Of a DNA stretch of 64,000 nt, positions 2,530 through 48,516 are shown one piece after another. Source of the DNA: Bacteroidales bacterium (lineage in GTDB: Bacteria; Bacteroidota; Bacteroidia; Bacteroidales; WCHB1-69); the NCBI GenBank assembly GCA_024400785.1, contig JAKSME010000001.1, positions 16,198-80,197 on the forward strand. The letters are read 5' to 3'. Below the pieces are notes generated by a model that saw nothing but the letters and a program-made list of their open reading frames with translations, ran no database searches and had not been told where the DNA came from. Positions within the stretch are counted from its first letter, which is position 1, and every line of letters starts with the position of its first letter. The position numbers were made by a program, and so were the translations under genes.

Positions 2530-3750
2530 ATGAAATACAAATTAATCTGTAAAAAGTGTGGTCACGAAATTGCCTCCTTTAACGAATGGTTTAATCACAA
2601 CCAAGTTTGTCCTGCTTGTGGAAGCAATTATGTTGAAGTGCAATATACGGCCGACTATCATCAGTTGCCCGAACTTTTTAAAGGGAATCCAACCAGTTTT
2701 TGGCATTATTTCGACTTCTTACCTTTGGAAGACAAAAAGAATATTGTCACTTGTAATGAAGGTGCCATTCCGATTGAGAATTGGGATTTTTTGGAAAAAT
2801 TTGCCAAAGAAAAATATGGAATTGACTGTAAAGTAATGGTTTACAGAAATGATTTGAACGGTGGAACGAACACTTTCAAAGATGTAGCTGCTGCAATGGG
2901 AGCAGCCATTATGAAAGAAAATGGCATTAAAGAATATTGTATCGCTTCCACAGGGAATACAGCAACGGCGTTTAGTAAGTACTTAGCGCTGGCAGGTATC
3001 AAGTTGAATGTTTTCGTTCCGAACTGCGTTTGCCAAGACACCGTGGACGAAATCCGCTCATATAACCAAAATTTGGTCATTTCTACGGGTGATTACGGCG
3101 CAGCAAAGCGCGAGGCGGCTGAGTACCAAAAGAGCCACAATCTGCTAATTTCTGGCGGTAATATCGATCCTATTAGGGTGGAGGCAAAGAAGACGATGGT
3201 TTTTGAATTTTTGCGTCAGATGGGAAAGATGCCCGACGTATATGTTCAGGCGGTGAGCGGCGGTACCGGCCCCATCGCGGTGGACAAGGGCGTGCGCGAA
3301 ATCAGCACCGCTTTCCCAAATGCCAAGTTACCGAAACTTATTCTGGTTCAGCAAGATACTTGCGACCCGATGGTACAAGGTTGGGAAAAAGCGGAAAAAG
3401 ACGGTTTCCCAGAAGGTTACGAGAAGAACTTCCCCTCCATCGCCAACCCGCAGACCAAGGTATCCATCCTTTCTACTGGCACGCCGGGCATGTTCCCCAT
3501 TGTGGCACCCATCGTGCGAAAAAGCGGAGGTGGCTTCGTGAGGGTGAAAGAGGCCGAGCTGGTGGATTATGCGAAGATTGCGAAACGCGAGCGCAACGTG
3601 ATGCTCGGTCCGGCGGCGGCGGTCTGCTTTGCCGGATTCTACCAGGCCTTGGCAGAGGGGAAAATCAAAGATGGCGAGACCGTGCTGATCAACACCGGCG
3701 AGGGAGCAGCCCGTGCGAAGGACTTCGCAGCAGCCGTGGAGAAGGCGTAA
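2530..3750 (+). CDS. Threonine-synthase-like PLP-dependent enzyme with N-terminal 4-Cys zinc ribbon (possible cysteate synthase)
   Basis: 406 aa. CKKCGH...CPACGS zinc ribbon, TFKD lysine context and STGNTATAF motif of fold-type II PLP enzymes of the threonine synthase/cysteate synthase type. Confidence 0.7.
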   Translation: MKYKLICKKCGHEIASFNEWFNHNQVCPACGSNYVEVQYTADYHQLPELFKGNPTSFWHYFDFLPLEDKKNIVTCNEGAIPIENWDFLEKFAKEKYGIDCKVMVYRNDLNGGTNTFKDVAAAMGAAIMKENGIKEYCIASTGNTATAFSKYLALAGIKLNVFVPNCVCQDTVDEIRSYNQNLVISTGDYGAAKREAAEYQKSHNLLISGGNIDPIRVEAKKTMVFEFLRQMGKMPDVYVQAVSGGTGPIAVDKGVREISTAFPNAKLPKLILVQQDTCDPMVQGWEKAEKDGFPEGYEKNFPSIANPQTKVSILSTGTPGMFPIVAPIVRKSGGGFVRVKEAELVDYAKIAKRERNVMLGPAAAVCFAGFYQALAEGKIKDGETVLINTGEGAARAKDFAAAVEKA

Positions 3751-3799
3751 GAACAAATAATATTTCCATTATTTTGCGAGCACAAAATCTCTGTAACAA

Positions 3800-4456
3800 A
3801 TGAAACATTTTCTGTTTAAACATCTATGGAAAATGACAGGAATATTCTTCCTCGCTGCTCTTGCATTCAGTTGTGAAAAAGAACCCGTTGATCCTGTCAC
3901 TCCCGAACCAGGCCCTGTAGAAATTGATATTCCGGGAGCTGACAGCAATATTCTGATTATGAAAGTGGATTACCAAACCTTTCATTATGAGGGATATACC
4001 ACTGTGAATGTTGATAGTGTTAATGATTCCTCTGACACCATCCCCTTTTTGGCAACGTATTGTCCTCCTACTGATTTTGGATATATAAAATTATTCTATG
4101 AGAACCCCAGCCAGCTCCTTTTTTATGGAGGTATTTTTTGGATGGGATGCGGGAATCTCCATTTCCCAACTTCCTTCATGGAATTACCTGCTCAAACCTC
4201 TGGACTCCTCTACCCAGGAAACGACAAAATCTGCGTCATTGATTATTCTGGTGCACAACAATCGCTCCCCTGGAATTATAATCTTGTAGATGAAACCATG
4301 ATTGAAAACGTTTGGGGAACCATATCCAAGCAGCCTGAATTTCAGCATTATTATAGCAAGACCAACAAAAAAGTCGCAGTATTCTTGTACACACCAAGTG
4401 TAGGAGTTGGGAATCCCGCTGATTGGGATTTTATCATTTTTGTAGAAAAAGAATGA
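3800..4456 (+). CDS. Hypothetical lipoprotein
   Basis: 218 aa ORF with a hydrophobic signal sequence ending in the lipobox-like AFSC. No recognisable domain. Confidence 0.5.
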   Translation: MKHFLFKHLWKMTGIFFLAALAFSCEKEPVDPVTPEPGPVEIDIPGADSNILIMKVDYQTFHYEGYTTVNVDSVNDSSDTIPFLATYCPPTDFGYIKLFYENPSQLLFYGGIFWMGCGNLHFPTSFMELPAQTSGLLYPGNDKICVIDYSGAQQSLPWNYNLVDETMIENVWGTISKQPEFQHYYSKTNKKVAVFLYTPSVGVGNPADWDFIIFVEKE

Positions 4457-4466
4457 AAAATCTGTT

Positions 4467-5387
4467 ATGACTTCAGGGCGATTCAAAGAAATCACTGCCC
4501 GTTGCCAGCCGCACCCAGTATTTTCAAGCGACTGGACGCACTATTATTCTAATGATTTCGCCGACTCGCTCCTGCCTGAGGCTGGCATTGTTAAAGGGAA
4601 GCACCTCCAGTTTTACGAGGTATGGCTGCATTCTTTAGGTGAAATCCACAATTTTCGATGGAGAATGTGCAAAACCATTTCATTATTGGGGCTATTCCTG
4701 CCCATCCTTTTTTATTTAAAGTTTAGGAATTCGGATATGCAAGATTTTCTTCTTGTCTTTCTGTATTATTCAATGTTTCCTATTTTCAATACATTTATTT
4801 GGCTATTCAAAAAAAATAAAACCAAAAGAGATGTTCCTTTTTTGAGATTTATAGTCATTCTTACCACAGATTTTCTCTTCTTTCTATCCTGTACTTTCCC
4901 TTATAACCACCAACTTAAAGAGATTCTTCTCTTTATCCCAATTTCTGCAGCAACTGCTGTTATATATATATGTTGGGCAGACTCGACTGACATTGTGGCC
5001 AAAATGGCTATAACTACAAATCCTGAAAATGGATTCAAGACTGTGGTTCCCAAATTGCCTATAGAAATGAAAAGCCTCATCAAAAACAGGCAGGCCATAC
5101 CCTTTATGGATAGTGCTTTTTCACGATACTATATCTTCTTTATCCTTCTTTCTTTCATCCCGTTAATAGGTATCTGGTGTAATGGGGGGAATCTTGTTGA
5201 GCACCATTCTGCCAGTCAGCATGCACTTACTCTTATCGCGTTTGGAGTGCCTATTTTTTTTATGTGTTGGGGGATTTTCCTCATCACTCATCCGAAAGGG
5301 GTTGGTGTTAAAATTTGTACTATCATTTCATTAACTGCCCTTATTCCTTGCCTTGTCTATGCCTTGTTTACACTATTTCTTATATGA
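4467..5387 (+). CDS. Hypothetical polytopic membrane protein
   Basis: 306 aa ORF starting 11 nt after the preceding gene, with multiple long hydrophobic segments. No recognisable family. Confidence 0.5.
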   Translation: MTSGRFKEITARCQPHPVFSSDWTHYYSNDFADSLLPEAGIVKGKHLQFYEVWLHSLGEIHNFRWRMCKTISLLGLFLPILFYLKFRNSDMQDFLLVFLYYSMFPIFNTFIWLFKKNKTKRDVPFLRFIVILTTDFLFFLSCTFPYNHQLKEILLFIPISAATAVIYICWADSTDIVAKMAITTNPENGFKTVVPKLPIEMKSLIKNRQAIPFMDSAFSRYYIFFILLSFIPLIGIWCNGGNLVEHHSASQHALTLIAFGVPIFFMCWGIFLITHPKGVGVKICTIISLTALIPCLVYALFTLFLI

Positions 5388-5709
5388 AGGAATCTCTGTT
5401 GATCTATGAAAATGGTTATATCATCTCCTTATCAGAATTTTTCACTCCCATACCGTATTTTACTTTTTTGGTGACTTCTAATTAAAACTAATTGATTTTC
5501 AGGAATATATAACGTAAAATGGCACGATTTTCGTTATTATTTTTCCTGTTTTGTTAAATAAATATCAATTTAACAGAATCAATATTTTCGAGCCGATTCC
5601 AACTGCGATATGCCACTTCGCTCCAAATGTTTTATTAAAAAAATGATATAAATCTTTGATAATCAAATAATTATTTGTATATTTGCAGAATAATTTGAGC
5701 GACATTAAA

Positions 5710-6090
5710 ATGGAAAAGGCAAACCTACAAACGGACCGGAATCTGCGGATTATTTGATTTGGAAGAAAACACCGCAAAATTGTGCTCGCTCGGCAATCCT
5801 TTGGAAAAATTGTTGAAAGTGGTTGATTTCGAGATGTTTAGAGAAACCCTTGAAGCGGGGCTTTACAAAGAAAAACTGACGAATGTCGGAGCGAAACCAT
5901 ACGATTACGTGCTGATGTTCAAGATTCTCGGGCGCGGGTTGAACACGTGTTCGGCTATTGCGAGCAGAGCATGCGCGGGATGTTCAGTCGCGCCGTGGGT
6001 TTTGCGCGAAATGCCGCCAGAAACATCCTGACAAGCTTGGTTTACAATATGATGCGTTACGAGCAAATTCAAAGACTTGGAATGAATTAG
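5710..6090 (+). pseudogene. IS5-family (DUF772/DDE_Tnp_1-type) transposase remnant, frameshifted and internally deleted
   Basis: ATG at 5710 reads MEKANLQTDRNLRII*. After a frameshift the sequence continues LFDLEENTAKLCSLGNPLEKLLKVVDFEMFRETL...KPYDYVLMFKILG (N-terminal DUF772-like). Around 5935 it switches frame into VEHVFGYCEQSMRGMFSRAVGFARNAARNILTSLVYNMMRYEQIQRLGMN* (typical IS5 C-terminus). The catalytic DDE core is missing. Confidence 0.6.
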
Positions 6091-6096
6091 TTTAAT

Positions 6097-6285
6097 ATAA
6101 CACATTGATTATCAATAAATTACCCCCCTAAAATTTTTATAAAAATATTGCTAAACTGTTGGGAATGAAAAAATAGTATGTAAATTTGCAGCGTCGTTTC
6201 CTTTTGAAATTTTGTTTAACGGACTTCGCAAAATTCAGAGGGACGGTGCGAAAAGAGTAAAAATAGAAGTCCCCTTTTGATTATA
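6097..6285 (+). repeat. Repeat R1 copy a (~190 bp promoter + leader module)
   Basis: By-eye alignment to 7335-7523 shows only scattered mismatches and one 3-nt indel. Contains a TTG -33-like element, a TAAATTTG -7 box (6181-6188) and a leader hairpin. Confidence 0.85.
6181..6188 (+). promoter_or_regulatory. Bacteroidota-type -7 promoter box TAAATTTG inside repeat R1a
   Basis: Perfect TAnnTTTG, with TGTTG 19 nt upstream as a -33-like element. Conserved in copy R1b. Confidence 0.5.
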
Positions 6286-6408
6286 GGTGGCTTGCTCTTT
6301 GCGGTTACTATGGTATTAATGATAAAAAAGAGAATCCTTATTACCCATATTATAATGGAGATACAATTAACAAGCATAAATTCGGCACTGTTTTTATGAG
6401 AGAGTCTG

Positions 6409-7287
6409 ATGAATTTAACAACAGAATACCCTATGGTAAAATCAAAAAAAATCATTAACTTTAAGATATTTCTTTATACAATCTCTTTCTTATTATCCTA
6501 TTTCCTTTCTTCTTGCAACGGACCGAAAGCTGTCTCCTGTAGTAGTATTACCAATGACTGTATCATGACCCTGACAGATTCCACAGACCAACATCTTGTT
6601 TTTTTCCAATGGGTGAAAATCAACAATAGCTGCTATGAAGCAAAGTGCATCTATACCTTCATAGAGCCCAATCCCACCTTTCAATTGATTAAGGGCAAGG
6701 ACACGTTGTCTTTTGAGAGGGATGCGCTATTTATTTGCGATACGGTTGCTGATCGCAACCAAGATGGTTATGTGGATTGGATCATTCGGTCTCGCATGTC
6801 GCGCGGCAAGATGGAGGTGGTCTATTATTTTATCCCTGAAGAAAAACGACTTGACCCCATTCCTGACACGATTTTTGATGAGCCTTGGGAACAAGATTAT
6901 TTTTGGTCATTTGATACGGTGGCCTATTGTATTCCCATTGATAGCCATCGCAAAATAGAATTTACCGAATTAATAGTAATTCTTGCCGATGAGGAAAAAC
7001 GCTGCGACTCCGCATACGGGAAGCCTATATTGATTGACGGAAGGGATACCATTTCTCTTAGTTACGATGCGGAATATGAAGGTGCTCACATTATCTCGCC
7101 AGACAAACAAAAGGTGGCGTTTCTCACCCGACGTTGTTCTTGGTTGGGTAATGTATGGATAGACCGTGAGGATTGCTGCATTCTTGATTTGGAAAGCAAA
7201 GAATTTTCATTTGGTGTATGCGGCGACGGGCATTTCGACAATCACAACCGCTGGGTGTGCGATGGAGAATTGATGTGGGTATGGTAG
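6409..7287 (+). CDS. Hypothetical lipoprotein
   Basis: 292 aa ORF downstream of R1a. Hydrophobic N-terminus ending in LSSC (lipobox-like). No recognisable domain. Confidence 0.55.
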   Translation: MNLTTEYPMVKSKKIINFKIFLYTISFLLSYFLSSCNGPKAVSCSSITNDCIMTLTDSTDQHLVFFQWVKINNSCYEAKCIYTFIEPNPTFQLIKGKDTLSFERDALFICDTVADRNQDGYVDWIIRSRMSRGKMEVVYYFIPEEKRLDPIPDTIFDEPWEQDYFWSFDTVAYCIPIDSHRKIEFTELIVILADEEKRCDSAYGKPILIDGRDTISLSYDAEYEGAHIISPDKQKVAFLTRRCSWLGNVWIDREDCCILDLESKEFSFGVCGDGHFDNHNRWVCDGELMWVW

Positions 7288-7334
7288 TAATGCCCTGTTT
7301 CAAATATACAGAGATTAGGCATGATTTGATATTT

Positions 7335-7523
7335 ATAACACATTGGTTATCAATATATTACCCCACCTAAAATTTTTATAAAAATATTACTAAACTGTTG
7401 GGAATGAAAAAATAATATGTAAATTTGCAGCGTCGTTTCCTTTTGGAATTTTGTTTAACGGACTTCGCAAAATTCAAAGGTGCGGCGTGAAAACATTAAA
7501 AATGGAAGTCCCCTATTGATTAT
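7335..7523 (+). repeat. Repeat R1 copy b (~190 bp promoter + leader module)
   Basis: Direct repeat of 6097-6285. The 30 nt before it weakly resemble the end of the IS5 remnant. Confidence 0.85.
7420..7427 (+). promoter_or_regulatory. Bacteroidota-type -7 promoter box TAAATTTG inside repeat R1b
   Basis: Perfect TAnnTTTG at the same relative position as in R1a. Confidence 0.5.
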
Positions 7524-7722
7524 TTTAGTAGATAAAACTGACAATGGACATCCCCGTTTTATAATCATAGACCAAATTAAATGTAGAGAATGGGATGATT
7601 TATCGAATTTAGATACAGAATTATTAGATATAACAATTAGAAATTATGAACATGCTTGCGATATCGCAAATAGACACAATTTTGATTCTTCTATAAACCT
7701 ATGCTGCATTCAACGAAAATAA
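7480..7722 (+). CDS. Small hypothetical protein (doubtful; GTG start inside repeat R1b)
   Basis: 80-codon ORF beginning within the repeated leader and overlapping the next gene by 22 nt. No family recognised. Confidence 0.25.
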   Translation: MRRENIKNGSPLLIILVDKTDNGHPRFIIIDQIKCREWDDLSNLDTELLDITIRNYEHACDIANRHNFDSSINLCCIQRK

Positions 7723-8330
7723 TCTTCGCTTCACTAATTGTTGCATATATGGCCCTTCTGGTCTCCTGCGAGAAGAAGCCTCAAATGAAAGACCACTATT
7801 ACCACTATATTTCAAAAGAATCTGACAGCATCGTTCCTTTTCACTCCCAAGGAGACATCCAATGTCTGAAAGCGAATCTATTTATTGCAGACGAGAACCT
7901 GTACATCGGTCTTCCATACTATATTGACACTTTACAAGGCGAGAACCAGATTGTTCAGAAAAAAGTCGGCACTATACTTTTCAATCCTGTAGATTACGGC
8001 ATCAACATTGACACTGCCTCCTATCAATTTATAGTAAAGGATATGATTGCTAAGGATGAGAACCACGTATATGCCTATCCTAAAGGATTGTTTAAATTGC
8101 CTTTTATCCAAGTACTAGACCTCAACCCTGCTCACACTATTGTCCTTGACCATGAAGCGACCTATCTGCGAGATGACAGCCTCGTATATTGCTTTCCCAC
8201 CAACACCTATCTGGACGTTAAAGCAAAAGATTTTGAAGTAATATATATCCAACACGTACCATTTGGAAAATATCACAGTATACTATACTATTGGGACGAA
8301 CCACAAGAATTACCCACGACATCAGAATGA
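7701..8330 (+). CDS. DKNYY-like lipoprotein
   Basis: 209 aa. Signal sequence ending LVSC. Repeated motifs of the DKNYY type (KDENHVYAYPKG, RDDSLVYCFP), each followed by FEV/IY. Confidence 0.6.
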   Translation: MLHSTKIIFASLIVAYMALLVSCEKKPQMKDHYYHYISKESDSIVPFHSQGDIQCLKANLFIADENLYIGLPYYIDTLQGENQIVQKKVGTILFNPVDYGINIDTASYQFIVKDMIAKDENHVYAYPKGLFKLPFIQVLDLNPAHTIVLDHEATYLRDDSLVYCFPTNTYLDVKAKDFEVIYIQHVPFGKYHSILYYWDEPQELPTTSE

Positions 8331-8971
8331 AACCGCTAACATTCCCATTGTTATTCCTCGCTCTCCTGCTGTGCGTCGCCTGCAACCGACATTGCCCATG
8401 CACGCAGCAAGGCACTGGTTTCGTTTGGCATTCTGAACCCAAAGAGGCAAATGTCCTCCACATATCTATTCATCCGTCAATACTCCCCTTCTCTGGAAAA
8501 ACCCTCGAAGTGAAATATGTAAAGATGAATGGCGCTCTACATCCTGTGTCAGAGGTGGTGGATTGCAAATCTTTCATCAATATCTACGACAGCGAGGACT
8601 CTGTTGCTCGGAGAAACAACGAATATTATCGTATAAACCCTATCGTGAACTATTTCAAGGACAAAAATTACCTTTACTTTTATATAGAACAAGAAAAACC
8701 TCCTTACGACGATTTTCTGACCGTGATGGGAAAATGCGATGACTATGAGGTACTTGGAGGAGAATATTTGCGAGTGGGTGACAAAATCTACTGCGAAGGA
8801 ATTGAGGTTGTAGATGCCGATATGGCTACTTTTCATACCATAGAAGTCTTACGGAAATATAGCGAATGGCAGGCTATCTTGGGGAAAGACAAGAATCATA
8901 TCTACCTGTATGACAAGCCGATGACCAAAAGCCAATCGGAAGGTTTTTATATTTCTGACTTTCCTTATTGA
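8327..8971 (+). CDS. DKNYY-like secreted/lipoprotein
   Basis: ATG at 8327 overlaps the previous stop (ATGA). Signal peptide MKPLTFPLLFLALLLCVAC. Motifs KDKNYLYFY, GDKIYCEGIEVVDADMATFHTI and GKDKNHIYLYDKP match the DKNYY family pattern. Confidence 0.6.
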   Translation: MKPLTFPLLFLALLLCVACNRHCPCTQQGTGFVWHSEPKEANVLHISIHPSILPFSGKTLEVKYVKMNGALHPVSEVVDCKSFINIYDSEDSVARRNNEYYRINPIVNYFKDKNYLYFYIEQEKPPYDDFLTVMGKCDDYEVLGGEYLRVGDKIYCEGIEVVDADMATFHTIEVLRKYSEWQAILGKDKNHIYLYDKPMTKSQSEGFYISDFPY

Positions 8972-9068
8972 TTATTATTCCTTCGACAGAAACGTGTAAT
9001 ATTATTCGTACTTTTGCAACCAAAATTCCTAAAACAATACACTCAAATGATAAAGAATATTTTCGATT

Positions 9069-9902
9069 ATGAAACCGCCTGTCATTAGTTTGTGCCTTGT
9101 GTTGCTTATTTTGGGCGGTTCCTGCCAGTATAAAACCTCTCAAAAAGAGACAACGGACAAGATCCATACGACACAGTCCTCGTCTTTATCCTATCCCATA
9201 TCCTTGCAAACACAACTGGATTCCATCAATCGCAATTTGCACATTCTTTCAACCTATACGGAAGGGGATTACCCTAAAGGTTTTGACGCACTCTCTGCTG
9301 CTTCCGCCACTGCGGATGGAATTGTTTCTGCCATCAATAACCATCCCATCCATATTGATTCCGACATCCCTAATTTGAACAAAACAGCAGATTTTAACGG
9401 GATGGTGACAATCTATAATATCAGGGCTTATATCGACGGAACAAAGCAATACGAAGACCATCCCATTCTGGTGTGGCACGCCAACGGCACCAATCAGGCT
9501 GTACGATTTCCAATGATGACCAACATTCATACTATCGATGAATTGAATGAGGAAAAAGGATTGTACCTTTTGCTGGGTACAGAACGACTGTCTGGTTGGT
9601 GCACACTTCAAACTGCTTATGTCATACAAATAAAGGATGGGGAGCTGAATCTCCACTATCCTGCTTTTGCCGAAAGTCCGCAACTGTCGCTATGCAGCTG
9701 TTCTTTCCCCTTCTCATATGATGCAAAAAAGAAAACGCTGAATTACAAAACGGACATTCATAACTACTTGATGGAGGAGCTGATGGGTTACAACGACTCC
9801 CTCACGGCACAAGCTATCTATCCATGGATTATCGACAGCTACATGAAAGATTTCTCTTTCTCCCTGAAATTCGACGGTAATCGCTTCAAACCAGAAAATT
9901 AA
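9069..9902 (+). CDS. Hypothetical lipoprotein
   Basis: 277 aa. Signal sequence ending LGGSC. TACTTTTG box at 9009-9016 upstream. Confidence 0.55.
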   Translation: MKPPVISLCLVLLILGGSCQYKTSQKETTDKIHTTQSSSLSYPISLQTQLDSINRNLHILSTYTEGDYPKGFDALSAASATADGIVSAINNHPIHIDSDIPNLNKTADFNGMVTIYNIRAYIDGTKQYEDHPILVWHANGTNQAVRFPMMTNIHTIDELNEEKGLYLLLGTERLSGWCTLQTAYVIQIKDGELNLHYPAFAESPQLSLCSCSFPFSYDAKKKTLNYKTDIHNYLMEELMGYNDSLTAQAIYPWIIDSYMKDFSFSLKFDGNRFKPEN

Positions 9903-9916
9903 CCGTACTTTTGCGT

Positions 9917-10684
9917 ATGAAACCGCTAACGTTCACATTGTTGCTTTTTGCCTTCCTGCCGTGCATCGCCTGCGGACAATTGGCGACTGAAGAATTGGAC
10001 GGCACAGCAACTCCCGTCCCCGACACGAGTGCTATAATTGCTACCGTGGAACGGAATTTGGCCACAATGGAAGAAATGCCCCATGACAATATTGAGGACG
10101 ACACCCTTCCGGAAAATCTCGCTCAACAGCTGCGTCTTTTCTTTTCATGCTCCTCCATAAAAGAAATCAATCGGTTCATCGACCCTGAAATTGGACTAAC
10201 TGTTCTTTACGCAAATGGCTGCTATCCCGAATATTCCCAATTGGATAGTCTTGACCCTAACAGAAATGTCTATCAATACACTCTTCCTTTTTGGATTTCT
10301 GAATCGCTCTTTCAATCTATTGATTTCAAGAATTTAAAAATCAATCATTTCCAATATACATACACTCCTGTCTTCCAGCGGGAAACCATTTTCAGGGAGG
10401 GCGTGTTCATCGACCAAAGTGAGGACAAAACGGTGATGAGCAATGCCATCAAGAACCTCATCCTAACACGGGGTAAGGAGGGTGCGGATGCGAGCTACCT
10501 GAAAAAACTGAAAAAAGATCTTGCCTTTTATAAAAAGATGGAAAAGAACTCTCTACGGATTGTTATAACCGAAAATAAGTCATCCACTATTGGAGGGGAA
10601 ACAAGGATTTTCCACTTCCATAAAAAGAACGGCAGATTGTACCTCTTCCTCATTGATTTTTATTCCATTGACGGGAGCGTGTAA
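9917..10684 (+). CDS. Hypothetical lipoprotein with shared MKPLTF signal-peptide cassette
   Basis: ATG at 9917 (the ORF-track start at 9911 is TTG). Signal peptide MKPLTFTLLLFAFLPCIAC. The mature part is unrelated to the neighbouring genes. Confidence 0.55.
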   Translation: MKPLTFTLLLFAFLPCIACGQLATEELDGTATPVPDTSAIIATVERNLATMEEMPHDNIEDDTLPENLAQQLRLFFSCSSIKEINRFIDPEIGLTVLYANGCYPEYSQLDSLDPNRNVYQYTLPFWISESLFQSIDFKNLKINHFQYTYTPVFQRETIFREGVFIDQSEDKTVMSNAIKNLILTRGKEGADASYLKKLKKDLAFYKKMEKNSLRIVITENKSSTIGGETRIFHFHKKNGRLYLFLIDFYSIDGSV

Positions 10685-10716
10685 GGGGAACCGGACACAC
10701 GCGGTGCGTCCCTGCG

Positions 10717-10862
10717 AAACCGACCGATTGGATGCCATGTTATGACAAATGTAGGGCTGCCATAATATGACAGCCCTACATCCCCCTTTAATCTTTTAAT
10801 CTCTTCATCTCTAATCTTTCATTTTTCAATTTAACGAACTTGTCGTATCTTTGCGGGCTGAA
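10717..10862 (+). repeat. Repeat R2 copy a (~145 bp hairpin + promoter module)
   Basis: Aligns with 11491-11639. Contains an 11-bp-stem hairpin (10749-10781), a CT-rich tract and a TATCTTTG box (10846-10853). Confidence 0.85.
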
Positions 10863-10887
10863 AAAACCCAGATAATTTCTGCTATTT

Positions 10888-11214
10888 ATGCTGCACAGGA
10901 TGTTTAGTCGAGACACTCTTCGGCAATTTGCCAAAATATTTCTATTCAGTTGCATTGTGCTGGGTTGTATCGTTCTGCTGCTCAGTTTCTTATCCGCTGG
11001 CTACGAAGAAGAGACGAACCTGTCACCATTAGCTGTCACATGCTATAAGCTGTTAAAAGGTCTGCACTTTTCATTGGGATTTTGGAATCGCCTGCTACCC
11101 GCTTGCTCATATTTCGCTTCCATAGCTACCACCAGTTTCTTGGTCAGTCTTGTGATTCTCACACTCATCAGATTACATCTTTTTATTGGAAGGAGAAATC
11201 CGTCTGGGAATTAA
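10888..11214 (+). CDS. Hypothetical small membrane protein
   Basis: 108 aa ORF 35 nt downstream of the R2a -7 box, with about 3 hydrophobic segments. No family recognised. Confidence 0.35.
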   Translation: MLHRMFSRDTLRQFAKIFLFSCIVLGCIVLLLSFLSAGYEEETNLSPLAVTCYKLLKGLHFSLGFWNRLLPACSYFASIATTSFLVSLVILTLIRLHLFIGRRNPSGN

Positions 11215-11372
11215 CTGTACTTGTGCCATCAAATCCCCTTTAAGTGCAATTCTCTTTTCCGCGGCATCACCTGCGGTGTTCTTCCATACCTGCCGCCCGT
11301 GCCTCAGACAGATGCGAGAGGCCTTTCAAACCCCACGTTACGGCGTTCATTTCAGTACACACCTCCAACCAC

Positions 11373-11468
11373 AAAACGTCCAAATCTATACTTTTAACCA
11401 TATATTTGGACAAGATTATAAATTATTTTGTCCAAATGTACATTATTAAGGTATGATTTGGACGTTTT
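11373..11468. repeat. 96-bp nested palindrome carrying four TTTGGAC/GTCCAAA motifs
   Basis: The outer 14-bp arms AAAACGTCCAAATC (11373-11386) and GATTTGGACGTTTT (11455-11468) are perfect inverted repeats. So are the inner 9-bp arms TTTGGACAA (11405-11413) and TTGTCCAAA (11428-11436). Confidence 0.8.
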
Positions 11469-11490
11469 AGTCTTATAGGCATCCCTAAAA

Positions 11491-11639
11491 AAACCACCGA
11501 TTAGCCGCCATGTTATGACAAATGTAGGGCTGCCATAATATGACAGCCCTACATCCTTTAATCCTTTCATCTCTTCATCTCTAATCTTTCAATTTTCAAT
11601 TTTCAGTTTAACGAACTTGTTGTATCTTTGCGGGCTGAA
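11491..11639 (+). repeat. Repeat R2 copy b (hairpin + promoter module)
   Basis: Direct repeat of 10717-10862. Hairpin at 11522-11554, TATCTTTG at 11623-11630. Confidence 0.85.
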
Positions 11640-11658
11640 TACCCACCAACTTTTGCGT

Positions 11659-12288
11659 ATGAAACCGCTAACATTCATATTGTTGTTCCTAGCCTTGCTG
11701 TTGCCTACCACCGCTGACGCACAGCAACGCGACCGATTGGCGGAACTTAACGTGGCGTGCCTCAACGAACACACCCTACAAAGCGGTGACCTGATATTTT
11801 GTAAAGGGTGGTCTGAGATGGATAAGGCCATTACTGCCAGTACAGGAGAATACACACACGTAGCGTTAGTGGAACGCGATAGCGCGGATAACGTGTGGAT
11901 AATAGAGGCCTTACCAGAGGAAGGTGTGCTGCGGAGATCTTTTAGAGAGTTTGAAAGAAGATTCTCCATGTTAAGTACCTTTGACGTATATCGCCTTACC
12001 CAACCCTTTGACACCTCCGCCGTTATCGCCCGTGCCAAGAGTCTTGTCGGAAAGCCGTACGACGAGGCCTTCCTGCCCGACAACGATGCCTACTACTGTT
12101 CGGAACTCATCGAGGTGGTCTTCGGCGGCCTTTTCCCGTTGCAACCGATGAACTGGCGCGATGCTAAAGGCAACCTGCCCGCGTATTGGAAAAAGCATTT
12201 TGAAAAGCTTGGCATACCCGTACCCGAAGGGGTTCCCGGTACCAATCCTACCGACATGAGCCGCTCACCGATACTGAAAAAGTTGTAG
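11659..12288 (+). CDS. YiiX-family permuted papain-like (NlpC/P60-related) amidase/peptidase, secreted
   Basis: ATG at 11659. Signal peptide MKPLTFILLFLALLLPTTADA. Motifs SGDLIFCKG, GEYTHVALV, VWIIEA, VGKPYD and YYCSELI match the YiiX/Peptidase_C92 pattern. Confidence 0.65.
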   Translation: MKPLTFILLFLALLLPTTADAQQRDRLAELNVACLNEHTLQSGDLIFCKGWSEMDKAITASTGEYTHVALVERDSADNVWIIEALPEEGVLRRSFREFERRFSMLSTFDVYRLTQPFDTSAVIARAKSLVGKPYDEAFLPDNDAYYCSELIEVVFGGLFPLQPMNWRDAKGNLPAYWKKHFEKLGIPVPEGVPGTNPTDMSRSPILKKL

Positions 12289-12440
12289 CAGAAGAGGGTA
12301 AGATTTTTACGACATCTTATATACTATTTCTTCCGTTCTCAGCGTTTTATTTCTCGGATTTTGTGCAACGGACTCCACAAAGTCTATGTCAAGTGCGTGT
12401 CATGCCATGATGAAAAACAGATGTCCATTGAAAAAAAATT

Positions 12441-13790
12441 ATGTCTAAAAAGTCCAATCTTTTCCTGTTTTTGAAGGCCCTCATCATTTTGGGGCTGATT
12501 CTTATTCTTTTAATTCCGGCCATGCTGATCAGTAATTTGATTGACGAAAGAGAGTCATTGAGAAGCGAAGCCGTAGTAGAAGTTTCCGGGAAATGGGCCC
12601 ACGACCAAAACCTGGTCGGTCCCTACCTCTCCATCCCCTATTACAATGAAAATGGGAAAGCCTCTGAGAAATGTTTCTTGCAGGTGATGCCTGAAAACTT
12701 GAAGATTACAGGCGATGTGACCACAGAAACTTTACATAGAGGTATTTACGATGTGGTGGTGTACCACTCGAACCTGAAAATCACGGGCAATTTCAGCAAA
12801 AAAGATTTTAAAGATATTCCCTTGGAGGAGCTCTGCCTCGAACGCGCCATTTTGTCAATGGGTATCACCGATTTACGAGGAATAGAGAACCAGTTAGACA
12901 TTCAACTTGGCGACCAAAACTATCGCTTTGAGGCCGGACTTTATAATCAGGACGTGGTCTCTGGTGACGGGATACATGCCATCGTCAATCTTGAAGATAC
13001 CTGTTCAACAGATGATTCTCTTTTGAACAACATTCCCTTCTCCATGTCGCTTTCGCTGAAAGGTTCTGAGCAACTGATGATTTCGCCTATCGGCGGTAAT
13101 ACTGATGTGAATCTCCACTCCAACTGGAACAATCCCAGTTTCACGGGCGATTTTCTCACTTCTGACAAGGAAATCCGTAAAGACGGCTTTGATGCACATT
13201 GGAAAATGATGCACCTCAACCGCGATTTCCCGCAATCATGGAACAGTCATGAAAAGAATTTTTTTCCCCAACACACCACCTTTGGAGTCACTTTCCTATT
13301 GCCGGTGGATGGCTACCAGAAGGCCACCCGCTGCGTGAAATACTCGATCCTCTTCACTACCATTACCTTCCTGGTCTTCTTCTTTGTGGAGATTTTGCGC
13401 AAAAAACGTGTCCATCCGCTACAATACCTGTTGGTGGGCGTTGCGTTGATTGTGTTTTACACGTTGCTGGTTTCCCTCTCCGAGTATTTGGCCTTCAATT
13501 TAGCCTATATTCTTGCCGCTTTGGCCACCATCATCCTCATCACCCTATACTCTAAAGCCGTGCTGAAATCATGGGCACAAGGCGGTTTTGTGGGCGGTGT
13601 GCTGGTGGTGCTTTACGGTTATCTTTTTACCATCATCCAGCTACAGGATTACGCCCTGTTGGCAGGCAGTATCTTTATCTTCATCATCCTCGGTGTGGTG
13701 ATGTTCTTCTCACGGAAGGTGGATTGGTACAATTTGAACGGAGGCGGCAAAGATGAGGGTAACACCCCGCCGCCACCAGCAATACAATAA
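12441..13790 (+). CDS. creD: Cell envelope integrity inner-membrane protein CreD
   Basis: 449 aa. N-terminal TM segment followed by LIDERESLRSEAVVEVSGKWAHDQNLVGPYLSIPY, then a C-terminal cluster of TM helices, as in the CreD family. Confidence 0.8.
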   Translation: MSKKSNLFLFLKALIILGLILILLIPAMLISNLIDERESLRSEAVVEVSGKWAHDQNLVGPYLSIPYYNENGKASEKCFLQVMPENLKITGDVTTETLHRGIYDVVVYHSNLKITGNFSKKDFKDIPLEELCLERAILSMGITDLRGIENQLDIQLGDQNYRFEAGLYNQDVVSGDGIHAIVNLEDTCSTDDSLLNNIPFSMSLSLKGSEQLMISPIGGNTDVNLHSNWNNPSFTGDFLTSDKEIRKDGFDAHWKMMHLNRDFPQSWNSHEKNFFPQHTTFGVTFLLPVDGYQKATRCVKYSILFTTITFLVFFFVEILRKKRVHPLQYLLVGVALIVFYTLLVSLSEYLAFNLAYILAALATIILITLYSKAVLKSWAQGGFVGGVLVVLYGYLFTIIQLQDYALLAGSIFIFIILGVVMFFSRKVDWYNLNGGGKDEGNTPPPPAIQ

Positions 13791-13801
13791 CTATTGTAAA
13801 C

Positions 13802-13834
13802 AAAAAAAGCCGCAGGGATCTGCGGCTTTTTTTT
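13802..13834. terminator. Bidirectional rho-independent terminator
   Basis: A-run, GCCGCAG-GGAT-CTGCGGC hairpin, then T-run, lying between the convergent genes creD and DUF3467. Confidence 0.75.
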
Positions 13835-13848
13835 CGTAATCTGATTTT

Positions 13849-14148
13849 TTACGCCAGCCCGCCATCGCCGCCTATCATCGGAATAACATTCTGTCTCTCT
13901 TCGATTCGGCCATTCTTTTCCTCAAATTTACCAATGCTTTCACGCAATGCCACCAATAATCTCTTGGCATTTTGAGGAGTAAGGATGATGCGAGAACTTA
14001 CTTCACCCTTGGGCATGCCGGGAAGCATGGCGATAAAATCCAAAATGAACTCATTGTCGGAATGAGTAATGATGGTGAGGTTGGAGTATTTTCCTTTGGC
14101 TACCTCTTCGCTGAGGTTGAGGTCTAATTTTTGTTCTTGCTTATTCAT
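13849..14148 (-). CDS. DUF3467-family protein
   Basis: MNKQEQKLDLNLSEEVAKGKYSNLTIITHSDNEFILDF... matches the small DUF3467 family commonly found downstream of rpoC in Bacteroidota. Start taken at the internal Met (14148). Confidence 0.7.
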   Translation of the reverse strand: MNKQEQKLDLNLSEEVAKGKYSNLTIITHSDNEFILDFIAMLPGMPKGEVSSRIILTPQNAKRLLVALRESIGKFEEKNGRIEERQNVIPMIGGDGGLA

Positions 14149-46402: not shown

Positions 46403-46410
46403 TACCTTTG
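46403..46410 (+). promoter_or_regulatory. -7 promoter box TACCTTTG upstream of comEC
   Basis: Perfect TAnnTTTG. It overlaps the ORF-track TTG at 46408, which argues for the ATG at 46429. Confidence 0.45.
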
Positions 46411-46428
46411 ATAAAATATTTATTAGAA

Positions 46429-48516
46429 ATGAATCTTTCAAACTATCCTATTCTCCGTTTGCTCTTGCCCCTTCTTTGCGGTATCTGTTTGGTGTATTCT
46501 AATTGTCTGAGTTTTCATAACTATTTGATACCCTTTATATTGATATTTACTTCTCTGTCTTTGGGCTTGTTCCTGCGACTTTTCTTCCCAAGGTTTCTTC
46601 CCTGGTTTCCCTTTGTCTTGCTTTTCAGTGCTATGCTGTTTCTTGGAATGATCCTAACTTCATTTAAATTTTCACCACCCTCACTTCATAAAAATGAAAA
46701 ATTGGTAGAAAGCAGTCGCTTTTTTGCAGCAAGAATTATTGAAAAACCCCTGCAAAAAGAAAAATCTGTGAAACTTCTTGTCGCACTCGAGAGAGACCAA
46801 CATAATATTAGTCTCAATGCTAACGCCACCCTCTATTTGCAAAAATCTCCTCAAGTGCAAAAACTTCAAGCAGGCGATATCATTTTTCTCCACTCCAACC
46901 TTATCCCCATCTCTCCACCGCAAAACCCCTACGCCTTCAACAATCAAGTCTATATGAAACGGCGCTCCGTATTCTTTACGGGTTACTCCGCTCATTGGAC
47001 TCCACTCACCCACCAACCCATCAACCCCATCTCTCGAACCGCAAACTCCTTACAGTCTTTTTTCTCTAAAACATTCTCTGACAACGGATTAAATGGAGAG
47101 GAGTACGCCGTCATTACCGCCGTCCTCCTTGGCAATAATGAATCCATGGAACCTGAACTGAAAGCTCGATACGCCTCCGCAGGTGTTAGCCATATCCTTT
47201 GCGTTTCAGGTATGCATGTCGGTATTATCTTCATGATTATCAACTTCTTACTCTCGCCACTCGACCATCTGCCCAAACTTAGGTTTCTCAAAGCTCTTCT
47301 CCTCTTTGTCTCCATTTGGTTTTATGCCAATATCACCGGCCTCGCCCCCTCCGTTAAACGCGCAGCCACCATGTTCACCTTTGTCCTCTTGGGACAGTCG
47401 CTCTCGCGTAATGTCAACGTCTTTCACAGCCTCTTCGCTTCAATGTTTATCTTACTGTTAATCAGTCCATTACTACTATTCGAAATCGGTTTCCAAATGA
47501 GCTACCTCGCTGTCTTCGGCATTGTGATCTTTCAACCCAAAATCTCCAACCTCCTACATCCCAAAACTAAGCTCGCTAAGTATTTCTGGGAACTCGCCGC
47601 TGTCTCTATCTCCGCCCAACTCTCCACCTTTCCCCTCTCTGTATACTACTTCGGTCAATTCCCTAACTACTTCTTACTCTCCAACTTATCGGTCATCTCG
47701 CTCTCTTTCGTCGTGGTCGTTACCGGCGTTGTCCTCCTGTCTGTTTCCTGGGCCCCTCTTCTCTCAAATGGCATCGGTTGGCTTCTCTCTTACGAAATTA
47801 AAATCCTCAATGGCATCGTCTCAGGCATAGATGCCTTGCCCGGTTCCGTAACCCAAAATATTTGTGTTAATTTTCTTCAGATGCTGCTATTTTATGGCAT
47901 TATCATTTTCTTCTTCCTTTTTATCATAAAAAAGAAAAAATTATATAAATACTTAAATCTTAGCTCTTTACTGCTACTTTCCTCCTCGTTTTGCTATAGC
48001 AAAATCCAAACCTCATATCACCACGAAGTCACTTTTTATGCTGTGGATAAAATGAGTGTCATAGGACTGAACGATGGTGGTAGTGGCATTATTCTCGAAG
48101 ACTCAGCCGCCCTCCGCAATCCTTACTGCTACGATTTTAACATCAAAAATCATGCACGAATGAATCGTATTGAAAATCAATGCTTTAGTATAGACTCCAT
48201 CTTCATTTCCCAAGACAATATTGCCAAAATCGGCCCCTTTATTCTTTTAGACAACCAAATGATTTTTCTACTCTCCGCTCATGAATATCTCTACCCAGCT
48301 CCCCACCCTATGAAAATTGACGTGCTTTGCCTTAGCAATAATCCCAAAATTCCAATGAATAAATTACTCAAAACATTTGATTGTAAGCAAATTATCATCG
48401 ACGGATCCAATTCGCGATACACAGAAAACCGTTGGATTGATTCCTGTAAAACATATCATATTCCCTGTCATTCTCTACGGCGGGACGGTTATTTTTCAGT
48501 CCAAAAAAAGTTTTGA
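46429..48516 (+). CDS. comEC: ComEC/Rec2-family DNA internalization channel protein
   Basis: About 695 aa. Many TM segments, the competence-domain motif YASAGVSHILCVSGMHVG, and a C-terminal beta-lactamase-like region. Confidence 0.85.
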   Translation: MNLSNYPILRLLLPLLCGICLVYSNCLSFHNYLIPFILIFTSLSLGLFLRLFFPRFLPWFPFVLLFSAMLFLGMILTSFKFSPPSLHKNEKLVESSRFFAARIIEKPLQKEKSVKLLVALERDQHNISLNANATLYLQKSPQVQKLQAGDIIFLHSNLIPISPPQNPYAFNNQVYMKRRSVFFTGYSAHWTPLTHQPINPISRTANSLQSFFSKTFSDNGLNGEEYAVITAVLLGNNESMEPELKARYASAGVSHILCVSGMHVGIIFMIINFLLSPLDHLPKLRFLKALLLFVSIWFYANITGLAPSVKRAATMFTFVLLGQSLSRNVNVFHSLFASMFILLLISPLLLFEIGFQMSYLAVFGIVIFQPKISNLLHPKTKLAKYFWELAAVSISAQLSTFPLSVYYFGQFPNYFLLSNLSVISLSFVVVVTGVVLLSVSWAPLLSNGIGWLLSYEIKILNGIVSGIDALPGSVTQNICVNFLQMLLFYGIIIFFFLFIIKKKKLYKYLNLSSLLLLSSSFCYSKIQTSYHHEVTFYAVDKMSVIGLNDGGSGIILEDSAALRNPYCYDFNIKNHARMNRIENQCFSIDSIFISQDNIAKIGPFILLDNQMIFLLSAHEYLYPAPHPMKIDVLCLSNNPKIPMNKLLKTFDCKQIIIDGSNSRYTENRWIDSCKTYHIPCHSLRRDGYFSVQKKF

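Follow-up and report, generated by a model that had tools for sequence, protein, structure and literature searches.

The 64,000-nucleotide (nt) stretch of DNA analyzed here (hereafter the window; contig JAKSME010000001.1, positions 16,198 to 80,197) comes from an uncultured rumen member of the Bacteroidales and carries, between the gene of a pyridoxal phosphate (PLP)-dependent enzyme and creD, an island of short genes that is probably a toxin-less, or 'disarmed', allele of a polymorphic toxin-immunity island; that is, an orphan-immunity array. Nine plus-strand genes of 108 to 306 codons lie within positions 3800-12288, and homologues of six of them (g0b, g1, g2, g3, g5, and g6) are located directly after, and often overlapping, toxin genes of two polymorphic families in other loci (loci and contigs are cited below by L numbers and proteins mostly by P numbers). 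Three toxin scars are retained in the window itself (4467-4620, which is the first 51 codons of g0b; 6276-6458; and 7514-7722), and an intact toxin gene is present in another allele of the same island (L115). The original prediction, made from the sequence alone, had compared the array by way of analogy with recombinase-associated acquired interbacterial defense (rAID) clusters of orphan immunity genes, and this likeness in layout gained support from the toxin-adjacent homologues together with the toxin 3' ends upstream of g1 and g2. Its count of eight genes needs correction, the 'eighth gene' (open reading frame [ORF] 7480-7722) being the 3' remnant of a toxin gene.

Genes and toxin scars of the island:
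3800-4456, plus strand: g0a, lipoprotein-like, present in the window, L004, L005, and L086 only; the L086 homologue is recorded as DUF8347
4467-5387, plus strand: g0b, a toxin N-terminus (first 51 amino acids) fused to a multi-transmembrane immunity-like protein
5440-5469, plus strand: breakpoint flank, the sequence found 5' of intact toxin operons in other alleles
6276-6458, plus strand: scar of a P0014-type toxin (possible SleB-like fold), its last 60 codons, translating as FDYRWLALCGYYGINDKK...GKIKKNH*, the C-terminus of P0014
6409-7287, plus strand: g1, two-domain lipoprotein, putative immunity protein, 99% identical to P0010
7514-7722, plus strand: scar of a P0035-type toxin, its last ~66 codons, overlapping the start of g2 by 22 nt
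7701-8330, plus strand: g2, lipoprotein, putative immunity protein to a P0035-type toxin
8327-8971, plus strand: g3, DKNYY lipoprotein with the shared signal-peptide module, in ATGA overlap with g2
9069-9902, plus strand: g4, lipoprotein; a paralogous domain is fused to the g5 domain in P0005
9917-10684, plus strand: g5, shared signal peptide, linker, and domain, putative immunity protein to Amidase_2-type toxins
10888-11214, plus strand: g6, 108 amino acids with two hydrophobic stretches, putative immunity protein to the P0036 toxin, containing a GYSWG motif
11659-12288, plus strand: g7, YiiX/Peptidase_C92 enzyme (secreted), resident as the last island gene

Toxin-Adjacent Homologues of the Island Genes

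The P0010 homologue of g1 overlaps the end of the gene for P0014, a 320-amino acid toxin encoded behind an 895-amino acid protein in L095. Homologues of the C-terminal half of g1, P0012 and L107_169, overlap the ends of two other toxins; P0012 overlaps the end of a 469-amino acid gene at a locus that also encodes a 3138-amino acid SpvB/TcdB/RHS protein. The start codon of g1 is probably the ATG at 6433. With g2, 91% amino acid identity was observed to a gene that overlaps the end of P0035 in L102-L106, and window 7514-8309 is 93% identical at the nucleotide level to L102 10785-11580, a segment made up of the end of P0035 (last 209 nt) and the overlapping 210-amino acid gene. The g3 protein is 53% identical (E 9e-80) to L107_221, a DKNYY gene overlapping the end of toxin P0038, while g5 has 79 and 53% amino acid identity to L113_237 and L110_233, respectively, which directly follow the Amidase_2 toxins P0033 and P0039. 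In L115, the last 20 nt of P0036 are shared with a 108-amino acid gene that has 95% amino acid identity to g6, and the corresponding region also follows P0036 in L114; the homology to these two loci begins at window 10880, 8 nt 5' of the g6 ATG. With g0b, the N-termini of L110_534 (DUF6402) and L107_493 are matched by residues 1-51 at 60% identity, and residues 67-306 match L110_303, the gene directly after the L110_534 toxin (E 6e-11). Overlaps of 4-26 nt between a toxin gene and its downstream gene were found in L095, L098, L102, L107, and L115, with a different downstream gene for each toxin type. Given this gene context, the lipoproteins would be expected to neutralize their cognate toxins.

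Signal peptides and lipoboxes of the island proteins were assigned by eye, and the mature parts were confirmed to be mutually unrelated, as originally described. Only two island proteins are recognized by Pfam: g7 as Peptidase_C92/YiiX (E 9e-22), in keeping with the YiiX-like amidase first proposed, and g3 as DKNYY (E 1e-5, just above the Pfam cut-off); the second of the two DKNYY-like proteins of the original prediction, g2, does not pass that model. NCBIfam searches with the island proteins gave nothing useful, and nothing relevant was found in the literature on DKNYY and DUF6402.

Toxin Scars and an Intact Allele

Window 6275-7513, which begins with the P0014-type scar, is 95.4% identical to L095 3558-4791. 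At positions 5440-5469, all 30 nucleotides are identical to L095 1-30, located 5' of the 895-amino acid gene, and the breakpoint at 5469 is the same. Moreover, window 5299-5469 (171 nt) shows 100% identity to L115 2-172, and from there L115 runs on through an intact 820-amino acid gene, P0036, the g6 homologue, the spacer R3 (described below), an R2-like promoter, a P0035 scar, g2, and g3. This P0035 scar is ~40 nt longer than that of the window and is joined to an R2-type promoter. The toxin N-terminal motif was absent from all frames of the 64 kb window, where no intact toxin gene was found. Because an intact toxin is encoded by the L115 allele and scars of toxins persist in the window, the island is best regarded as a genuine toxin-immunity locus in some strains, the window version of which has had every toxin removed.

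The Toxin Families

P0014 and the 469-amino acid protein of the first toxin family resemble each other only over their first ~30 residues (MD[ST]EYWKSSPFGENSIFHP...). This leader is also common to P0032-P0040, with identities of 81-97%, and is followed by unrelated C-terminal domains: Amidase_2 in P0033 and P0039, Polysacc_deac_1 (polysaccharide deacetylase) in P0040, and Phage_lysozyme and Metallophos (metallophosphatase) in further members. The second family, to which g0b is linked, was typed by a match to DUF6402 (E 3e-8). No significant Pfam match was obtained for P0014, P0032, or P0034-P0038, and sequence searches of the PDB with P0014 and L098_469 found no match. The AlphaFold2 (AF2) model of P0014 (predicted local distance difference test [pLDDT] score of 69, core >85) yielded one sensible fold match, the lytic transglycosylase SleB (prob 0.97, target TM 0.67, E 0.24), which is only suggestive of a SleB-like fold. 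Since a conserved N-terminus of ~30 amino acids is combined with unrelated C-terminal domains, the architecture is that of polymorphic toxins, and most of the typed domains are predicted to attack peptidoglycan.

Intact modules have a constant order: a gene for a protein of ~820-900 amino acids, then the toxin (MDxEYWKSSPFGE...), and then a lipoprotein or small membrane protein at or overlapping the toxin stop codon. In L095 and L098-L116, the stop codon of the ~820-900-amino acid partner (N-terminus ...LF.FKTFRSPDRI...) lies 2-13 nt before the start of the toxin, the leader of which reads MDxEYWKSSPFGE.SIFHP. The partner proteins had no match in Pfam, NCBIfam, or PHROG, and no genes of a type VI secretion system (T6SS) were found within 10 kb of any toxin locus. 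Judged from these sequences, the set of partner, leader-bearing toxin, and lipoprotein is apparently an undescribed polymorphic toxin system of the Bacteroidota.

Phage-like genes run convergently with the toxin arrays in L098 (10892-13225), L102 (16483-20993), L113 (6591-12860), and L114 (4490-10767), in each case on the minus strand, and include those for a virion structural protein of 774-777 amino acids (phrog_15220, E 5e-37) and a tape-measure-like protein of 1253 amino acids. A prophage or a tail-like particle may thus be encoded next to the toxins.

Re-Used Modules and Predicted Promoters

The genes of the island are separated by re-used DNA modules, each of which is listed below with its position.

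6096-6274, plus strand: R1a, with a predicted promoter (TTG-N19-TAAATTTG, -7 box at 6181), ending in a hairpin and CCCC; 92% identical to R1b
7334-7513, plus strand: R1b, native to the 3' side of g1, with a predicted promoter (-7 box at 7420)
9894-9916, plus strand: junction of the g4 stop codon, -7 box TACTTTTG, and the conserved lead-in of the signal-peptide module
10703-10862, plus strand: R2a, the native 3' flank of g5, with a hairpin, 8-nt T-rich repeats, and a -7 box at 10846
11238-11324, plus strand: R3, terminator-like, the native 3' flank of g6
11373-11468, no strand assigned: AT-rich palindromic element of 96 nt, resembling a miniature inverted-repeat transposable element (-43.5 kcal/mol, z = -9.5)
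11479-11639, plus strand: R2b, the second R2 copy, with the predicted promoter of g7 (-7 box at 11623)

The two copies of R1 (6096-6284 and 7334-7523) are 92% identical over 190 nt (blastn, E 4e-74), and those of R2 (10706-10862 and 11479-11639) are 86-88% identical (E 3e-50). Within R2 are a perfect hairpin of 29 nt (fold z = -3.05) and 8-nt T-rich units repeated in a row. A 57-nt DNA module encoding a signal peptide occurs at 8327, 9917, and 11659 with 70-81% identity, and a fourth, diverged copy is present at 9069. The original prediction had reported R1, R2, and the shared signal peptide as repeats, and all were confirmed where it had placed them. No further copies of the three were found in the 64 kb window (shuffle expectation, 0). 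Whether the repeats recur elsewhere had been proposed as a check, and the modules do recur in other loci and contigs. R1-like sequence lies 3' of g1 or P0012 in L095, L096, and L098-L101; window 10100-10864 is 87% identical to L113 5763-6518, which contains the g5 homologue and R2; and R3 is located after stop codons in L081, L082, L083, L086, L114, and L115. Because R1 follows g1 or P0012, R2 follows the g5 homologue in L113, and R3 follows g6 in L114 and L115, the three modules represent the native 3' flanks of g1, g5, and g6, respectively. Upstream of g7, a single R2 was found in L002, L003, and L090, and the signal-peptide module with the R2 promoter forms the native head of g7 in every g7-bearing allele. 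The signal-peptide module itself heads at least eight unrelated mature sequences.

A scan for the -7 box of the Bacteroidetes (TAnnTTTG) identified copies upstream of g1 and g2 (both in R1), g4 (at 9009), g5 (at 9906), g6, and g7 (the last two in R2). R1 and R2 are accordingly candidate carriers of canonical Bacteroidetes promoters (TTG-N19-TAnnTTTG) reading into the next gene, and since these promoters are predicted within the modules, the orphan immunity genes probably have separate transcripts. A sigma-70 scan, which applies the wrong model for Bacteroidetes, found 27 sites vs. 26.7 expected from shuffled sequences. Of the promoter and leader originally ascribed to R1, the promoter box stood, and what follows R1 proved to include remnants of toxin genes and not only a leader. 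Likewise, a junction motif had been described over two stop codons: at 9896 it consists of the -7 box and the lead-in of the signal-peptide module, and the copy at 11207 is imperfect (TACTTGTG). In contig L081+L082, the 9894-9916 junction recurs after another gene. As a structured RNA leader, R1 had folding z values of only -1.5 and -2.0, its two copies being too few for covariation. The possibility that R1 is the terminus of an insertion sequence (IS) element was rejected, R1 following g1 homologues in toxin loci that have no IS.

The 8-nt T-rich units (TTTAATCT/TTCATCTC) lie at window 10785-10840 and 11547-11610, between the R2 hairpin and the promoter; their copy number differs among alleles (a 16-nt indel relative to L086), and one R1 junction (L098) falls within this zone. 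The hairpin (window 10751-10779 and 11524-11552) recurs at L006 13811-13837, 3' of a gene with a type IX secretion system sorting domain in a distant relative (62% CreD identity), with its loop CCATAATATGAC unchanged and a compensatory stem change from GGGCTG/CAGCCC to GGGATG/CATCCC. It resembles either a structured terminator that has been conserved or an element of the repetitive extragenic palindromic (REP) type. The near-perfect palindrome at 11373-11468 has the ends AAAACGTCCAAAT/ATTTGGACGTTTT and is also found in L083 and L086. At both gathering and E-value thresholds, an Rfam scan gave nothing meaningful in the island, the palindrome yielding chance microRNA-like matches.

Variation at a Fixed Site

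3751-12440, plus strand: hypervariable island, between the gene for the PLP-dependent enzyme (2530-3750) and creD
5690-6089, plus strand: IS4/IS5-type transposase remnant, internally deleted, frame broken
12441-13850, plus strand: creD and its terminator, the right border, 94-98% nucleotide identity to L002-L005

The island is flanked on the left by genes for dipeptidyl peptidase IV, a WYL regulator, and the PLP-dependent enzyme, and on the right by creD, a gene annotated in L090 as DUF3467, rpoC, and rpoB. A query with CreD identified four genomes at 95-96% amino acid identity (sheep, yak, and two 'ruminal' metagenome-assembled genomes), and in relatives at this level of identity 0, 2, 4, or 7+ genes occupy the identical site: L003 has two genes and L002 four, and in L004 and L005 the equivalent of window 4458-12282 is missing altogether such that g0a adjoins creD. 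Metagenome contigs supply at least five further alleles, and in total at least 10 alleles from related rumen genomes and metagenomes carry from 0 to ~9 island genes each. A comparison across relatives had been suggested at the outset, and the locus is indeed hypervariable in units bounded by the repeat modules. Across one genus of uncultured rumen Bacteroidales, the chromosomal site of the island appears fixed, the PLP-enzyme gene lying on one side and creD on the other. Because gene content differs among the alleles, the island is taken to be the whole stretch from the PLP-enzyme stop codon to creD; the variable region therefore starts at 3751 and not, as the original prediction had it, after an IS5 remnant. 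The decayed transposase is present, although only its C-terminal 42 amino acids match a model, the end of DDE_Tnp_1 (E 1e-4; 22.5 bits vs. a cut-off of 23).

The GC content of the island is 40.5% (37.8% in its left half) vs. 47.8% for the PLP-enzyme gene, 46.0% for creD, and 45.4% for rpoC. Island pieces held in common are 94-98% identical across species, whereas nearby core genes are 71-87% identical. This level of nucleotide identity to four other species applies to creD, g7, and g0a (window 11659-13850 and ~3600-4456); the block extends through creD to the terminator at ~13850, past which identity to L002-L005 falls to 71-84%. With g0a, identity to L004 and L005 is 94-97% vs. ~78% in the flanks. 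This difference between block and flanks points to a recent exchange between species of the whole block, including the envelope-integrity gene creD, and the content of the island appears to turn over faster than its sequence diverges. No genes for conjugation, integration, or transposition flank the array apart from the one dead IS remnant. A discrete mobile element with att repeats was considered and dismissed, alignments of the borders having revealed no direct repeats. Exact-sequence look-ups of CreD and g7 returned no record. Two other genes of the window may be mentioned: the WYL/WCX-domain regulator gene at 1612-2508, two genes 5' of the island, is kept in all alleles (PADLOC WYL model, E 9e-17), and a ComEC-type competence protein is encoded at 46408-48516 (Competence, E 2e-54). 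The latter could provide a route of DNA uptake, which would fit an exchange of the island by homologous recombination.

Differences among alleles fall at the repeat modules, in the segments between direct module copies. Contig L081+L082 has the order [signal peptide-linker-g4-like][signal peptide-linker-g5 domain], and the first of these units occurs alone in L090 and the second alone in the window; the sequence common to all three is a ~130-190-nt sequence ('...FDGNRFKPEN* + junction + signal peptide + linker'), and the alleles differ by exactly the segments between its copies. The window and L086 share the arrangement R2a-g6-R3-palindrome-R2b with a 616-nt interior that is 98.05% identical; in L086 the R2a-g6-R2b block has a different context, and neighboring genes are 70-87% identical. 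Homology between the window and L003 in g3 stops exactly at the lipobox Cys codon, the mature part in L003 being preceded by another signal peptide, which resembles that of the toxin-linked DKNYY gene. The deletion within g7 of L084 joins two segments that overlap by 8 nt in their matches (microhomology). Such a pattern is as expected from unequal homologous recombination, presumably of the RecA type, between direct repeats together with occasional illegitimate deletion.

Domains of the island proteins are also found joined in other combinations. P0002 unites a signal peptide with the N-terminal half of g1 and with the g5 domain; one ORF, P0005, joins the g5 linker to both a g4-like and the g5 domain; and P0007 combines a g4-like domain with the signal peptide and linker of g5. 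Further domain mosaics occur at L003 7985-9052, L086 1570-2628, L115 5360-6121, and L083 90-698 (minus strand): the mature part of g3 (DKNYY) is found joined to a C-terminal domain that is otherwise part of another lipoprotein (L002 6525-7349), and L083 and L090 encode this lipoprotein with its middle domain cleanly deleted. With g7, a short form is found in the window and L003; L002 (7516-9849) and L090 (8135-10510) have a form with a 568-amino acid in-frame insert after 'LNE' that gives a faint BNR match; and in L084 (3457-3789) an internal deletion has removed roughly the first 100 mature residues.

Proposed Origin of the Array and Alternative Explanations

It is proposed that the ancestral locus consisted of tandem modules, each with a partner gene, a toxin gene, and an immunity gene. 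Partner and toxin genes would then have been deleted, leaving behind the immunity genes, short toxin scars, and the conserved module flanks, and the R1 and R2 flanks so retained would supply a promoter to whichever gene comes next. The module of promoter and signal peptide, with or without the linker, would have been placed ahead of several unrelated mature domains. Unequal homologous recombination between the modules, which form direct repeats, could add, remove, and swap cassettes and split or fuse domains, with microhomology deletions bringing further change, and the whole block including creD may have passed between species recently.

A number of observations weigh against this account of a disarmed toxin-immunity island. 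The island proteins match no Pfam immunity family or PADLOC model; g0a, g4, and g7 are without a toxin-adjacent homologue in the loci sampled, and g7 is an enzyme. The AF2 model of g5 was unusable (pLDDT 43), and the -33/-7 promoter assignments are consensus matches alone. Toxin arrays adjoin phage-like tail genes in four loci, such that a phage-related role is possible. Finally, the 3' end of R1 is invariably ...AAAAATAGAAGTCCCC, preceded by a GGACTT/AAGTCC hairpin, and five different partners adjoin it: the P0014 gene, entered at window 6275 or, in L096, 128 nt upstream of that point; the P0035 gene (window 7514); the promoter part of R2 (L098); and unrelated sequence (L086). Random deletion does not readily explain this fixed 3' end, and because it is constant against five partners, a site-specific mechanism is retained as a minority reading. 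The island would then be a true cassette system, integron- or rAID-like, the hairpin ends of R1 and R2 being sites for a recombinase encoded elsewhere that captures immunity cassettes and supplies them with upstream promoters. A run of C likewise terminates the R2 hairpin, the loop of which is kept, with a compensatory stem change, in a distant relative, and the layout (co-oriented short genes, repeated spacers, low GC) is that of rAID-1. Nevertheless, a cassette system of this kind is unlikely: as the original prediction had remarked for its own view of the locus, no recombinase was seen, and recombinase domains (including tyrosine/serine and Phage_integrase) were absent from the island, from another 30 window ORFs, from the genes called in alleles L090-L094, and, among tested ORFs, from the at least 10 alleles and the related loci. 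Apart from the end of R1, the joints that might have been site-specific resemble deletions and homologous exchanges; other junctions vary, as with the longer P0035 scar of L115 and its R2-type promoter, the g7 deletion of L084 has its 8-nt overlap, and module boundaries coincide with the ends of homology as homologous exchange predicts. It is comparably improbable that the invariant 3' end of R1 (hairpin and CCCC), and perhaps the R2 hairpin, serve as joints for a trans-acting enzyme that excises partner and toxin and leaves a promoter before the immunity gene, which would be a dedicated mechanism to 'disarm but stay immune' for an undescribed toxin pathway of the Bacteroidota.

The absence of any match to a known immunity family, the enzymatic nature of g7, and the tiny size of the families (nine clusters for g5 and six for g1 among 5.8 billion) would also suit an ordinary lineage-specific cluster of surface or periplasmic lipoprotein paralogues, concerned for example with nutrient binding or surface variation, in which the repeats are by-products of local duplication and the proximity to toxins is incidental; in other bacteria, too, unrelated lipoprotein genes are known to share conserved 5' modules. 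Such a coincidence is nonetheless quite unlikely when six families are each found directly after or overlapping a different toxin gene on independent contigs, three toxin remnants lie in the window itself, and an allele of the same island has an intact toxin. A phage or phage tail-like origin is very unlikely. The 'toxins' would be virion-associated or lysis peptidoglycan hydrolases, the lipoproteins spanin-like or superinfection-exclusion proteins, and the island prophage debris, and this would account for both the virion structural and tape-measure genes that adjoin four arrays and the lysozyme, Amidase_2, and SleB-like domains, which are also typical of endolysins. However, scans of 2.9 million IMG/VR viral contigs found no relative of the toxin family or of the 896-amino acid partner (the R1 end was also not found there), the arrays of L107-L112 sit between housekeeping genes, and the phage-like genes are on the opposite strand. 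In addition, different toxin-lipoprotein pairs occur in tandem, some beside SpvB/TcdB/RHS proteins of 3000 amino acids, which is the pattern of a polymorphic toxin locus.

Comparison With Known Systems

The rAID-1 systems are defined by a conserved tyrosine recombinase of the XerD family heading the array, co-oriented short orphan-immunity genes, and conserved intergenic motifs (bioRxiv 10.1101/471110; PMC12247911). Like them, the island is a Bacteroidales array of co-oriented genes of ~100-300 codons with repeated intergenic sequences and a GC content below that of its surroundings, six of its genes are related to putative immunity genes of toxin loci, and it holds several divergent copies or domains of one immunity type. 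Unlike them, it has no XerD-like recombinase in the tested ORFs and occupies a fixed site between core genes; its putative immunity proteins are lipoproteins and membrane proteins linked to an uncharacterized toxin family and not to the GA1-3 T6SS effectors; and it keeps toxin 3' scars, with an intact-toxin allele at the same site. Because of these scars and this allele, the array looks to be partly the product of toxin loss in situ rather than of pure acquisition. The intergenic motif of rAID has been published only as a figure, and the resemblance of R1, R2, and R3 is in being repeated spacers. The AID-1 and AID-2 systems on mobile elements of Bacteroides also consolidate orphan immunity genes that spread between species (bioRxiv 10.1101/471110), to which the island block, 94-98% identical vs. 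~80% for the core, may be likened; but in the island no genes of an integrative and conjugative element or transposon are present save for the dead IS remnant, and the cognate toxins differ.

At rhs and cdiA loci, orphan modules of toxin C-termini and immunity genes are found downstream, and the T6SS auxiliary clusters of Vibrio cholerae contain orphan immunity genes. These resemble the island in having truncated 3' fragments of toxins directly 5' of intact immunity genes and in the tandem piling up of displaced modules. In contrast to them, the island region has no full-length head toxin gene, each immunity gene has its own promoter module, and the remnants (8-209 nt) are too short for re-arming by recombination. 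Integrons have in common with the island short genes on the same strand, structured repeats between them, and presence or absence cassette by cassette. Nevertheless, the island is without IntI, attI, and attC, its cassettes are not promoterless, and homologous and microhomology recombination account for its variation. What separates its genes differs from place to place (R1, R2, or R3, or no spacer where genes overlap directly), a separate TAnnTTTG box is present for most cassettes, and no attC-like sites were seen in the island, where the Rfam scan was also empty. The early analogy of layout therefore does not extend to membership, given the lack of a recombinase and of attC-like sites and the predicted promoters of the cassettes; by analogy, the island would function like an AID/rAID array without belonging to rAID-1 or to the integrons.

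How orphan-immunity arrays such as rAID are assembled has been stated to be unresolved (PMC12247911). The present locus offers a natural series of intermediates at one site, from an intact toxin, through scars of different length, to clean fusions of promoter and immunity gene, and includes immunity domains that have been fused or split by a portable module of promoter and signal peptide. It suggests that immunity arrays can arise through toxin loss and recombination between the conserved flanks of tandem toxin modules, with no recombinase in view, and it would extend such arrays to the rumen Bacteroidales. The locus also points to an uncharacterized family of toxins, the typed domains of which include ones that cleave peptidoglycan.

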